Shown here: one piece after another, positions 39,863 to 56,906 of the stretch
Numbering within the stretch: position 1 is the first letter of the stretch
Layout: each line of letters opens with the position of its first letter
IMG/VR virus record: IMGVR_UViG_3300028920_000694
Coordinates: 40,201-104,200 of that record
Length of the DNA: 64,000 nt
Reading direction: 5' to 3' (one strand)
DNA from: a virus
Made by a program: the position numbers and the translations under genes
The notes under the pieces: model-generated
Told to the model about the DNA's origin: nothing
Databases searched by the model: none
What the model saw: only the letters and a program-made list of their open reading frames with translations

Positions 39863-40159
39863 CTACTTTTTATTAAATTTATCTTTTTTGATTCCTGATA
39901 ATGTAATATCTAGTGTAGTTACCTTTCGAGTCTCTCCAGATTCATCCTTAAACTCTTGAGTATCCACAATTATATTATATTTAGCATCATCCAGATATTC
40001 TCTAATCAGAATCGCCAATACATCCAATGCATTCTTATTGTTCTTGCCCCTAGATTGAATCTTTATCTCATTTGCCTTGCTTAGAGCAAAGAAACAGCCT
40101 GTGATGTAGTGTTTTATCTCCTTTGGACCTATAAATACTATGTTATTTGAGTTAACCAT
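39863..40159 (-). CDS. albA: Alba (Sac10b) nucleoid-associated protein
   Basis: NIVFIGPK...YI...EIKIQSRG.N..NALDV...IIVDTQEF..E.GETRKVTTLDITL is colinear with the Alba consensus. Start at ATG 40159 after a GGAGG SD. Confidence 0.85.
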   Translation of the reverse strand: MVNSNNIVFIGPKEIKHYITGCFFALSKANEIKIQSRGKNNKNALDVLAILIREYLDDAKYNIIVDTQEFKDESGETRKVTTLDITLSGIKKDKFNKK

Positions 40160-53691: not shown

Positions 53692-53878
53692 GATAGGAGA
53701 TAAGATAAAGACTGAGCATGGAAAGACTGGAACAGTGGTGGACATACATGACACAGATGATGGAAGATACGTGATTCTCTACAAGAAGAGGAAAAATCTA
53801 CGTGCTTTAGTTGAAGGTGATGAGGAATTCAAAGTCATTAGAGGAACCAAAAACTATATAAAGGACAATAAGTTATAA
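53684..53878 (+). CDS. Small SH3/KOW-like beta protein
   Basis: KIGDKIKTEHGKTGTVVDI pattern. Confidence 0.45.
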   Translation: MVKIGDKIKTEHGKTGTVVDIHDTDDGRYVILYKKRKNLRALVEGDEEFKVIRGTKNYIKDNKL

Positions 53879-53895
53879 AAGGACAGTGAAGAGAA

Positions 53896-54834
53896 GTGAA
53901 AAAGAAAAAGATTGAATTTAAGGTGAATGAAGATTATTCTAAATGGTGTTTTAGATTAGATGTTGCAGACTATGGTAGACTAGAAAAAAGTATAAAGAAG
54001 AATGGAATCAAAACAGAGCTTCATGTTCTTCCTGATGGAACCATTCTCTGTGGGCATCACAGATATGAAATAGCCAAGAAACTAGGAATTCCAGATGAAA
54101 AAATTCCATATAAAATAATTGATTTACCAAATGAATACGATAGATTACTTTACTTAATTGATGATAATCTATCAAGAAGACAATTAAATCTAGCACAGAA
54201 GATTAGATTAGGAACTCAATATGAAGAGATTGAGAAGGTGAAAGCGAAACAGAGACAGAAAGAACATGGTGGAACAGCACCTGGTAAGGAAAAAGACACT
54301 TCGGGAAATATTTCCCAGAGTGATACAGGTCGAGCAAGAGACAAAGTCGGAGAGAAGATAGGGGTATCTGGTAAGCTCTATGATATGGGTAAAACAGTAA
54401 TGGAAGAAAACCCAGAAGATTTCAAGAGAGCTGAAGCTGGTGAAGTATCTATTAGTAAGTTATATTCAGAAATTCAGGAAGAAAAAGCAAAAAAGAAGAT
54501 ACAAGAGATGAAAGAGAGTTGGAGTAGGATTAATACTGAACCTAATCCTAAAAATGATTTAAGAGAGATTTATCGAGTATACTATGAAGGGCTATTTGAA
54601 TTTGGAGAGGCATTAGTTGATGCACTCTCTAACTTTGAATTCATCACGAAAGAGGAATTTATGGGTGGTGAGGAAATTAATCTAACGAAGATAACTAAAT
54701 CTATTATAGATGATGACTACTTTATAGATGAGAAGGATAAGTCACTTGAATTACTCAAAAATCTAACAAAGAAAATGGAGAATGCAATCAAATCATGTAA
54801 GAAAATATTAAAATATAATGATATGGAGGAATAA
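53896..54834 (+). CDS. ParB/Srx-like domain protein with an HTH
   Basis: RLEKSIKKNGI...TILCGHHRY.IAK.LG, DNLSRRQLN..QK, RARDKVGEKIGVSG. Confidence 0.85.
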   Translation: MKKKKIEFKVNEDYSKWCFRLDVADYGRLEKSIKKNGIKTELHVLPDGTILCGHHRYEIAKKLGIPDEKIPYKIIDLPNEYDRLLYLIDDNLSRRQLNLAQKIRLGTQYEEIEKVKAKQRQKEHGGTAPGKEKDTSGNISQSDTGRARDKVGEKIGVSGKLYDMGKTVMEENPEDFKRAEAGEVSISKLYSEIQEEKAKKKIQEMKESWSRINTEPNPKNDLREIYRVYYEGLFEFGEALVDALSNFEFITKEEFMGGEEINLTKITKSIIDDDYFIDEKDKSLELLKNLTKKMENAIKSCKKILKYNDMEE

Positions 54835-54835
54835 A

Positions 54836-55087
54836 ATGTTCTGTAAAGAATGTAAAACATTGATGTATCCAAAAGAAGATATGTTTATATGTCCAAAATG
54901 TGGATTGAAAAAGAAAAAGAATAAGAGAATTCAGATTATTTCTCATCAACTTGAAACTGAAGAGATAGAAGTATATAATGACAACCCAATTAAGAAAAAG
55001 ATGGAAGAGATTGATGAGGAGATAGATGGATATTTCTTTAAGAAACATGAAAACAAAGATAAAAAAGAGGAGATTGATGAAGAGTAA
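54836..55087 (+). CDS. Truncated TFS/RpoM-like protein (N-terminal zinc ribbon only)
   Basis: MFCKECKTLMYPKEDMFICPKCG matches the archaeal TFS N-ribbon (FCPKCG.LM.P....VC.KCG). The second ribbon and the catalytic DE hairpin are absent, replaced by an acidic tail. Confidence 0.7.
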   Translation: MFCKECKTLMYPKEDMFICPKCGLKKKKNKRIQIISHQLETEEIEVYNDNPIKKKMEEIDEEIDGYFFKKHENKDKKEEIDEE

Positions 55088-55655
55088 ATTTAAAGGCAGG
55101 TCAACTAGAACGAGTGGATGGGAGACACAAACTAATTATGATTGGATGCTTTCAGATTTGGATGTTTCTAGTCTACGATTCTTAAGTGATGAATATACAA
55201 AGAGGATAAGAGATTTTTCTAATCATTTTGATTTAGGAGACAAAGAAACCCAACATGAATATCAAGAACTCTTACAGAGAAAAAAGATGATTATTGAGGA
55301 ACTGGATCATAGATATATGGACATTTACGCTTCACCATCATATCAGGATAGAGAAAAATATTTTGATTCAGAGACTGGTTTAGTTCTGGATGAGAATAAT
55401 AATATTCTATATGGAGTATCACTTAATGAAAATGAGGATGATTATGTTTATCATCACATAGAGACTGAGCATAGAACTGAAGGCTCATATGATACATCTA
55501 AAGATATATTTGATGACATCACAAATGATATAGAAATAATACCTATGAAAGTTGGAAAGAAAGTAATTGGATTAAAAGTAATTGAGAAAGAAAGAAGTCT
55601 CAAAGATGTATACAGTGATTGGAACTATTACGAGAATGAAGAAGAAGAGAACTAG
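55077..55655 (+). CDS. Acidic hypothetical protein
   Basis: GAGGAG SD; overlaps the TFS-like gene. Confidence 0.55.
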   Translation: MKSKFKGRSTRTSGWETQTNYDWMLSDLDVSSLRFLSDEYTKRIRDFSNHFDLGDKETQHEYQELLQRKKMIIEELDHRYMDIYASPSYQDREKYFDSETGLVLDENNNILYGVSLNENEDDYVYHHIETEHRTEGSYDTSKDIFDDITNDIEIIPMKVGKKVIGLKVIEKERSLKDVYSDWNYYENEEEEN

Positions 55656-55956
55656 TATTGATAAAGGTAGGACTATATTAACAACAACAACGAAAGAGAT
55701 TGTGTTTGGACCCAAAAGAGCAGAAGAGATAGAGGTAGTTAATGAAGAACCTAGGTCTGCTAGAGCAAACAAAAGGAATTGGGATATGTGGAAATTTGCA
55801 GAGGAATTGAATCCAGAGGAGATTCAGTTTCTGATAACAAGAAGAAAAGAAAAATTAAGATATGAAACTAACACAGATGAGGTTAGGAATTTGAGGACTG
55901 ATATAAGCATTCTTGAGGATGCATATAGAATAATTAAACGTAGGAGAAAGAAATGA
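55582..55956 (+). CDS. Hypothetical protein
   Basis: ORF within the operon; start uncertain. Confidence 0.45.
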   Translation: MRKKEVSKMYTVIGTITRMKKKRTSIDKGRTILTTTTKEIVFGPKRAEEIEVVNEEPRSARANKRNWDMWKFAEELNPEEIQFLITRRKEKLRYETNTDEVRNLRTDISILEDAYRIIKRRRKK

Positions 55957-56168
55957 AATTAATCAAGACAGTATTTGAAGGAGTGGATGATGGAGTTGGA
56001 TTGTTAATTGCAGGACTAATTACAGTTGCAATCCTTCTGGTGATTGGAATAGTGATCGGAATGATAGAATATTGGTTGCTTGGAATTGCATTTCCAGAAT
56101 ATGTTACCTTTGGGTGGCATTGGTGGAGATTTCTTGCATTGGGATTATTATCAATTGTATTTGTATGA
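55953..56168 (+). CDS. Small membrane protein
   Basis: Two long hydrophobic segments. Confidence 0.55.
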   Translation: MKLIKTVFEGVDDGVGLLIAGLITVAILLVIGIVIGMIEYWLLGIAFPEYVTFGWHWWRFLALGLLSIVFV

Positions 56169-56180
56169 GGTGAAGAAAAA

Positions 56181-56906
56181 ATGGCTAAGTTTTTAAATCC
56201 AGAAGATTTGAATAAGATATTGAAAGAGAAGAGGAAACCACAATACTTCTTTCAGAGGACAAGAAAGACAGATAGAGAAGAGTTTGCAGACTTCTATGAG
56301 AATGATGACTCAGTGATTATTACATTCACTACAAACATAGCAGAGATAGAACCAAATAAGGAAGACCTAATAGGTAGAATATGGGAACCTAATCTAAAGG
56401 ACAAGGATGGGAATCCTAAGATAGACAAGTTCACAGGCAAGGTGATGGAGGCATGGTCTAAGTTTGAGGCTAAGTGTGTCATCAATGATACAGAGATAGT
56501 ATATGGATTCGGAAGTGATTGGGCTTCTCTACTTAGGGGAGTTGCTAATGAGATGCTCAAAAACGACATCAAAGACTTGACTGGAACCAGATGGAAGATT
56601 AGATGTATAGATATCAATAAGTATAACTGGGATATAGAATATATAGGCAAGGGAGATAAACCTGCACCTAAGCCTACAAAAGAAGACAAAAAAGATGATT
56701 CAACATATGATAAGGCAGTTGAGGCAATAAAGAGGATGGCACAGAGGAACAAGGCAAAGATACTTGCAGGATTAGATGAGGATGAATTTGCACCTGCTAT
56801 TGGATTGATGATTGAAGTGGATCCAAAGGAGATTCAAAAGATGATTCCTCAGTTAATTGAAAATGATGTAATTTCTGTTGAAGAAGATAAGATATATATA
56901 CAATAG
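56181..56906 (+). CDS. Putative single-stranded DNA-binding protein (beta-rich N-terminal domain plus C-terminal winged helix)
   Basis: Beta-rich N-terminal domain, Lys/Pro linker, and C-terminal DPKEIQKMIPQLIENDVISVEEDKIY wHTH, the layout of RPA32; lies in the replication block. Confidence 0.45.
   Translation: MAKFLNPEDLNKILKEKRKPQYFFQRTRKTDREEFADFYENDDSVIITFTTNIAEIEPNKEDLIGRIWEPNLKDKDGNPKIDKFTGKVMEAWSKFEAKCVINDTEIVYGFGSDWASLLRGVANEMLKNDIKDLTGTRWKIRCIDINKYNWDIEYIGKGDKPAPKPTKEDKKDDSTYDKAVEAIKRMAQRNKAKILAGLDEDEFAPAIGLMIEVDPKEIQKMIPQLIENDVISVEEDKIYIQ

Follow-up and report, generated by a model that had tools for sequence, protein, structure and literature searches.

A TFS-derived zinc-ribbon gene without its catalytic half in a tailed virus from marine sediment: a candidate modulator of host RNA polymerase

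What is a viral gene that begins like the archaeal transcript cleavage factor TFS (RNA polymerase subunit M) and ends without the half of that factor that carries out cleavage? The question is raised by an open reading frame (ORF) at positions 54836-55087 of a 64,000-nucleotide stretch of viral DNA (here called the window), which comprises bases 40201-104200 of the 115,333-bp linear IMG/VR record IMGVR_UViG_3300028920_000694, a record estimated by CheckV to be 68% complete. An earlier interpretation of these letters without database searches (the sequence-only reading) saw in the ORF a TFS-type N-terminal zinc ribbon and linker followed by an acidic tail, and proposed a modulator of host RNA polymerase on the precedent of the Sulfolobus paralogue TFS4. 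The TFS origin of the 83-residue product, here named P0001, is close to certain. We read the protein as a probable host-derived fragment of TFS, rather than as TFS itself, and its role as a polymerase modulator is plausible, with the chances for and against about even.

The N-terminal ribbon displays close similarity to that of cellular TFS. The four cysteines of P0001 follow the pattern CxxC-x12-CxxC (C3/C6/C19/C22) and are succeeded by the motif KKKK. Across residues 1 to 28, P0001 is identical to the best cellular TFS, a Thermoplasmatota gene (L014:823-1125), at 22 of 28 positions (79%), and it shares with this protein the KKKK motif, after which a diverged linker appears still recognizable; the cellular protein continues into a TFIIS-type C-terminal ribbon (C-ribbon) with an acidic dyad, whereas P0001 has neither and is encoded by a virus. 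Over its first 84 nucleotides, the viral gene reaches at most 81% identity with cellular TFS genes. Nineteen of the 28 residues equal the consensus of 61 cellular TFS, and only 1 is absent from all 61. In addition, 12 of the 15 columns that are conserved at 90% or more in cellular TFS are retained, as are all invariant positions of the ribbon. Cellular TFS almost always start with MFC (Met at position 1 in 92%), and P0001 also begins in this way.

General family libraries recognized the ribbon at low scores. The top Pfam match was Zn_ribbon_RPB9 (PF02150) at a subthreshold 17.9 bits, with other ribbon families at 15 to 16 bits. In NCBIfam, P0001 reached 25.8 bits on TFS_arch (TIGR01384; cut-off, 64.75), 25.6 bits on the TFS4 model (NF047723; cut-off, 120), which matched residues 2 to 39 only, and 17.0 bits on Csl4. 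The sequence-only reading had named a better match to generic zinc ribbons as the result that would speak against it; the generic ribbons (Csl4, the TFIIB ribbon, Zn_ribbon_3, and others) score 15 to 17 bits, all of them under the TFS and RPB9 scores. The best PDB sequence matches were RPB9 chains (E value, ∼0.2), and the best rows of a Foldseek comparison with the PDB were almost all N-terminal ribbons of RPB9, RPA12, or TFS4, none with a significant E value. Unrelated cellular zinc ribbons reach 17 to 21 bits on TFS_arch. The generic-library matches to TFS and RPB9, taken alone, are weak.

A profile specific to the lineage was built from 61 cellular full-length TFS of Thermoplasmatota genomes, with P0001 left out. 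This profile found residues 1 to 50 of P0001 at 49.1 bits (E value of 6e-14 in a set of 1551 ORFs from all six frames of the virus), bearing out the TFS-type N-terminal ribbon of the sequence-only reading. The virus encodes approximately 17 further ORFs of the CxxC...CxxC type, and its other zinc ribbons score below 10 bits each on the same profile.

Searches of wider sequence collections place the origin of the ribbon in Thermoplasmatota. An exhaustive phmmer search over 1.84 billion representatives gave five matches besides the query, four of which are N-terminal pieces of TFS. One phmmer relative (L007:1183-1439) is a full TFS split by a frameshift. Another locus, on a 507-bp contig (L005:142-366), encodes ribbon and linker followed by unrelated sequence without a C-ribbon, which could reflect either a second case of truncation or an artefact of the assembly. 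A NUDIX gene lies directly 5′ of TFS in both of these small metagenome contigs. An alignment of the TFS pieces, compared with one genome per prokaryotic species, identified 80 loci, almost all in Thermoplasmatota; 61 loci were recovered by a filter, and in these the matched sequence opens a full-length TFS, approximately 100 residues long, that has the two ribbons as well as the acidic dyad motif. The scan patterns were partly derived from P0001, which biases this phylum assignment somewhat, and the assignment is in line with both the phmmer result, which is unbiased, and short contigs from sediment. The best matches of P0001 itself are almost exclusively from Thermoplasmatota. Among 197 genomes of the class, P0001 found matches in 152, almost always a single one, in frames of approximately 100 to 110 residues (E values to 1e-12 and identities to 58% for the best), and the genes matched in five tested genomes score 89 to 99 bits on TFS_arch, above its cut-off. 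The sequencing runs that contain the virus are exclusively marine sediment metagenomes. Short contigs in both sediment runs match positions 54829-54918 at ∼80 to 85%, and the overhangs displayed for some of them continue as cellular TFS genes. Therefore, organisms with closely similar TFS co-occur with the virus.

The loss of the catalytic ribbon and its Asp-Glu hairpin, also claimed by the sequence-only reading, is confirmed. P0001 has no Cys beyond residue 22, and Pfam gave no match to the TFIIS-type C-ribbon (PF01096) in the protein. The tail scores −2.1 bits on a C-ribbon profile, and 1045 of 2000 shuffled tails score as high. The acidic catalytic dyad motif, invariant in 24 aligned cellular TFS, is absent. 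A MAFFT alignment that paired D75 with the catalytic Asp was rejected as forced, the tail having no residual C-ribbon. A C-ribbon was sought in all frames of the 115-kb record and none was found; because no remnant exists in any frame, a frameshift or an assembly artefact is excluded. Without C-ribbon and dyad, and with a score below the family cut-off, P0001 falls outside TFS membership.

Downstream of the ribbon, the protein is much less conserved. With the ribbon held fixed, the residue order of the linker contributes approximately 6 bits over shuffles (21 of 3000 shuffles reach the real score; P value, ∼0.007), and the linker scored by itself is below significance. Linker homology thus appears weak but above composition: the TFS-type linker of the sequence-only reading appears to be retained in a strongly diverged form. 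The acidic tail described there needs a similar correction. Its 33 residues include 13 Asp/Glu and 8 Lys, so that it is acidic in balance (net −5) but of mixed charge, not purely acidic. AlphaFold2 predicted the ribbon with a pLDDT of ∼92, the linker as a coil at ∼62, and residues 51 to 77 as a helix at ∼58.

The precedent invoked for function fits poorly. TFS4 (7OQY chain Y) is a TFS-family protein without cleavage residues, it is linked to virus infection, and its N-terminal ribbon docks at the jaw and lobe. In the structure, this ribbon sits between the polymerase's upper jaw and its lobe, the initial linker segment contributes two strands to the jaw, and the C-ribbon is located in the funnel (PMC8448823). 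TFS4, which has been reported in Sulfolobales only, is induced when a virus infects and vies with TFS1 for a shared site; cleavage requires the Asp-Glu pair of the C-ribbon, and inhibition by TFS4 requires the basic tip of its own C-ribbon (PMC5715097). TFS4 keeps two ribbons, of which the C-ribbon is shortened, whereas P0001 has one and lacks that tip. P0001 is not TFS4-like in mechanism.

The architecture of P0001 parallels TFS2 better than TFS4. In TFS2 of Crenarchaeota (Sso0605), the C-ribbon gives way to a predicted helix rich in Glu, and the function of TFS2 was untested when it was described (PMC5715097). Compared by description rather than by sequence, TFS2 and P0001 have the same plan, an RPB9/TFS-type N-terminal ribbon followed by a Glu-rich predicted helix. 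TFS2 is, however, a conserved cellular paralogue of another phylum. The sequences nearest to the P0001 ribbon are ordinary Thermoplasmatota TFS, of the TFS1 type, so that the likeness to TFS2 is probably convergent.

Three further systems invite comparison, and the first of them, yeast Rpb9, is together with TFS2 a better precedent for P0001 than TFS4. In yeast, Zn1 and the linker of Rpb9 (residues 1 to 52) function by themselves (PMC9638876); they belong to the same ribbon family, and the construct corresponds to residues 1 to 50 kept in P0001, although Rpb9 is a eukaryotic, stable polymerase subunit with two ribbons, unlike P0001. RIP (ORF145) of the virus ATV is a virus-encoded inhibitor of archaeal RNA polymerase, a helical bundle that plugs the DNA channel (PMC8448823, PMC9501531). 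As proposed for P0001, RIP is a small archaeal-virus protein that acts directly on a host polymerase that the virus needs, but it is unrelated to TFS, unlike P0001. Last, a 113-kb tailed virus, probably archaeal (IMGVR_UViG_3300033149_004566), encodes a LigD 3′-phosphoesterase fused to a TFIIS-type C-ribbon with its acidic motif intact (L097:4398-5204), so that the opposite half of TFS/TFIIS was kept there and joined to a DNA-repair domain. A ligase/TFIIS-ribbon fusion has been reported for Asgard viruses (10.1101/2021.07.29.454249). In the same tailed virus, the large terminase gene adjoins a gene for a Mu-F-like head protein that has a TFIIB cyclin repeat as its fusion partner (L097:7725-9983).

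We put at roughly even the chance that P0001 is the captured N-terminal half of a Thermoplasmatota-type host TFS, without the C-ribbon, which docks on the polymerase to compete with TFS. In such a scenario, a Thermoplasmatota-type host would be the source of the cellular TFS gene that the tailed virus captured, and the catalytic C-terminal zinc ribbon would have been lost in its entirety. The ribbon of P0001 would still dock between the jaw and the lobe of the host polymerase, as the TFS4 and Rpb9 ribbons do. Once docked, and without catalytic carboxylates for the active site, P0001 would occupy the TFS site and leave cleavage unstimulated. In competition with host TFS, which is a single match in nearly all genomes sampled, it could slow, arrest, or retune host transcription during infection; the charged helical tail might provide one more contact or be without a role. 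The 115-kb record yielded no gene for a multisubunit or T7-type RNA polymerase and none for TFB, so viral transcription probably depends on the host enzyme.

We infer, by analogy with the docked ribbons, that P0001 would bind RNA polymerase. A complex prediction of P0001 with zinc and with Rpo1″ from the genome of the closest TFS (score, 0.02; mark, 0.32) speaks neither for nor against binding. The Rpo1″ (RpoA2) of that genome (L177:1192-2610) carries a Lys/Pro-rich N-terminal extension of approximately 100 residues; in rpoA2 searches, the frames around the match measured 390 to 620 residues against a model of 367 positions, and the extension is possibly widespread.

Several observations weigh against a polymerase competitor. 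P0001 is a singleton: a word-indexed search of 5.8 billion proteins at the length of P0001 returned only P0001 itself, and IMG/VR scanned with P0001 and with the ribbon alignment gave no viral relative. The SWIM-RadA gene led to six related viral contigs; for 10 kb around this recombinase gene, or as far as the contig extends, none of them contains a TFS-like ORF, and the sole weak match in them is a generic ribbon of 33 residues. A second marine-sediment study (run X2) contains a close relative of the virus, whose contig of 6.4 kb matches positions 53800-53863 and 55319-56200 of the window, and in it the 1455 bases of 53863-55319 are replaced by 425 other letters. Because the replaced segment holds the upstream ParB-like gene, the gene of P0001, and the 5′ portion of the ORF that follows, these form a variable cassette; the P0001 gene itself is therefore dispensable or recently gained. 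The linker, which makes jaw contacts in TFS4, is poorly conserved in P0001, and TFS4-type inhibition needs a C-ribbon tip that P0001 has lost. Unless its action were timed, a global inhibitor would affect the transcription of the virus as well. In addition, the tail is possibly incidental, given its purine-rich DNA with two motifs of the next ORF that each combine a ribosome-binding site and an ATG. The motif GAGGAGATWGATG occurs in two copies, at 55016 and 55067, 51 nucleotides apart; the window has no others, and 0.02 would be expected in it. The final codons of the TFS-like ORF also serve the next gene as translation signals, and part of the P0001 tail may be nothing other than these signals read in another frame.

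Much of this is also what would be left by decay, an unlikely but serious alternative. P0001 would then be a remnant of a captured TFS gene from which the C-ribbon was deleted, with a frame that runs into the start region of the next gene and with no selected function. Its singleton status, the replacement of the segment in the close relative and the absence of the gene from the six related contigs, a linker that has drifted to 3 of 22 consensus residues with 6 novel ones, and a tail whose two motif copies are in frame with the downstream ORF are all consistent with such a history, and a run of 33 open codons past the break has a chance of approximately 8% (our estimate at 34% G+C). The ribbon tells against it. 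All invariant positions are kept there and 1 of 28 residues is novel, while the adjacent linker has drifted, a difference that indicates selection on the ribbon; such uneven conservation, tight in the ribbon and loose in the linker, argues against pure decay. Further, the ribosome-binding site and the start codon are intact, and the ORF abuts or overlaps both of its neighbors.

Bacterial Gre and DksA coiled coils reach into the polymerase funnel. The tail of P0001 could act in a similar manner, with an acidic-tipped helix entering the funnel and the ribbon as its anchor only, or it could tether a viral or host protein; we hold an active tail to be improbable. Such a role would agree with the predicted helix of 27 residues that ends in an acidic motif and with the comparable Glu-rich predicted helix of TFS2 (PMC5715097). 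In a protein atlas, P0001 lies nearest to clusters of archaeal proteins of 80 to 84 residues with an RPB9-type ribbon only (feature scores, 0.92 to 0.93; TM, 0.58 to 0.59 to a cluster of 84-residue Thermoproteota proteins), and this proximity is a lead only. The helix is predicted at low confidence (pLDDT, ∼58), however, and the tail is of mixed charge and low complexity, its sequence is partly dictated by the ribosome-binding site and start of the next gene, and no relatives exist to show its conservation. The boldest form of the idea is a long shot: P0001 might be the first virus-encoded, TFS-derived effector of archaeal RNA polymerase, with the ribbon on the jaw and lobe and an acidic-tipped helix in the nucleotide-entry funnel in the manner of Gre and DksA, as a viral, independently evolved counterpart of TFS2.

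The two remaining explanations fare worse. It is very improbable that P0001 is a counter-defense decoy, occupying the TFS site to keep an inhibitory host paralogue of the TFS4 kind off the polymerase. The idea draws on the induction of TFS4 by viruses and its rivalry with TFS1 for the same site; against it, almost every one of the 197 genomes of the probable host class has a single TFS match, and TFS4 has been reported in Sulfolobales only (PMC5715097). The weak second matches inspected in candidate host genomes are other zinc-ribbon proteins, one of which looks ribosomal, and a truncated TFS paralogue in candidate hosts was rejected on these grounds. Effectively refuted is a chance resemblance to TFS in a generic small zinc-ribbon protein of a kind that is frequent among archaeal viruses: the many other CxxC...CxxC ORFs of the virus, the subthreshold scores on generic models, and the TFS_arch scores of unrelated cellular ribbons would allow it, but it is contradicted by the 49 bits on the lineage profile against less than 10 for all other viral ribbons, by the identity of ribbon and first 84 nucleotides to cellular TFS, and by the 152 genomes whose best-scoring match lies in a TFS-sized open frame.

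Relatives of the truncated form were also sought with profiles. Among the best 120 of 175 matches of a profile search over 5.8 billion proteins, all were full-length TFS except for a few short pieces, which stop inside TFS sequence and lie on contigs of ∼1 kb or less. IMG/VR scanned with full-length TFS yielded only TFIIS-like proteins of giant viruses and the one LigD-phosphoesterase-TFIIS-ribbon fusion of a tailed virus described above. Within the library searched, no paper on TFS-like or TFS N-ribbon genes in archaeal viruses was found. The search with the upstream ParB-like gene gave no relative, and megablast against phage records returned nothing.

The features of the locus are collected in Table 1. 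P0001 has its own ribosome-binding site within an operon on the plus strand, and it abuts or overlaps both flanking genes. Its ATG lies 1 base after the stop codon of the upstream gene. The start was taken at 54836, and not at an upstream ATG at 54818, because the position of the GGAGG supports the former. Since both copies of the repeated motif look like a ribosome-binding site with an in-frame ATG, the downstream ORF has two possible starts; family libraries gave nothing above threshold for this ORF.

Table 1. Coordinates of the TFS-derived gene, its parts, and its immediate neighbors in the window
Feature	Positions	Strand	Remarks
TFS-derived ORF without C-ribbon (P0001)	54836..55087	+	83 residues plus stop; lineage TFS profile, 49.1 bits over residues 1-50
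GGAGG ribosome-binding site of P0001	54825..54829	+	6 nt 5′ of ATG; direct sequence reading
N-terminal C4 zinc ribbon, TFS/RPB9 type, with KKKK (residues 1-28)	54836..54919	+	Cys codons at 54842, 54851, 54890, 54899
Linker remnant, strongly diverged (residues 29-50)	54920..54985	+	3/22 equal to consensus, 6/22 novel relative to cellular TFS
Lys/Glu/Asp-rich tail (residues 51-83)	54986..55084	+	EEID three times (57-60, 61-64, 78-81); low-confidence predicted helix 51-77
GAGGAGATAGATG, motif resembling a ribosome-binding site plus ATG (55026), within the tail coding region	55016..55028	+	Possible start of downstream ORF, other frame
GAGGAGATTGATG, second copy, motif resembling a ribosome-binding site plus ATG (55077)	55067..55079	+	In frame with 55026
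Upstream gene of the same operon, ParB-like nuclease	53896..54834	+	312 residues; phrog_12047, E value of 9.5e-22
Downstream ORF, unknown function	55026..55655	+	209 residues from 55026 or 192 from 55077; overlap with tail, 62 or 11 nt

The carrier is a large tailed virus, with genes for a large terminase, a prohead protease, and a tape-measure protein, and it also encodes a SWIM-RadA recombinase and a pyrimidine-dimer glycosylase. Beside the terminase gene, on the minus strand, an ORF of 113 residues includes a weak Alba-like match (window positions 39968-40144; 24.2 bits against a cut-off of 25). A block of approximately 38 kb (G000:C1:6000-44000) consists mostly of genes for proteins of 200 to 350 residues, including epimerases/dehydratases and a carbamoyltransferase, and suggests viral glycan synthesis. 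A ribonucleotide reductase large subunit with an intein was also observed (L002:2329-4533).

According to a 2022 review, no archaeal virus sequenced by then encodes homologues of RNA polymerase subunits, and RIP, which is unrelated to any host factor, is the only virus-encoded polymerase inhibitor described there (PMC9501531). A virus that encodes the polymerase-docking part of host TFS would serve as a dominant-negative probe, of natural origin, for the TFS site. Even if P0001 is a decaying fragment, it still documents the transfer of a core transcription gene from host to virus. The captured gene would also connect uncultivated Thermoplasmatota of sediments, as hosts, with the viruses that infect them. 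With its 83 residues, P0001 also offers a tractable handle on ribbon-only TFS paralogues such as TFS2, and if its acidic-tipped helix does enter the funnel, this would suggest what TFS2 itself does.
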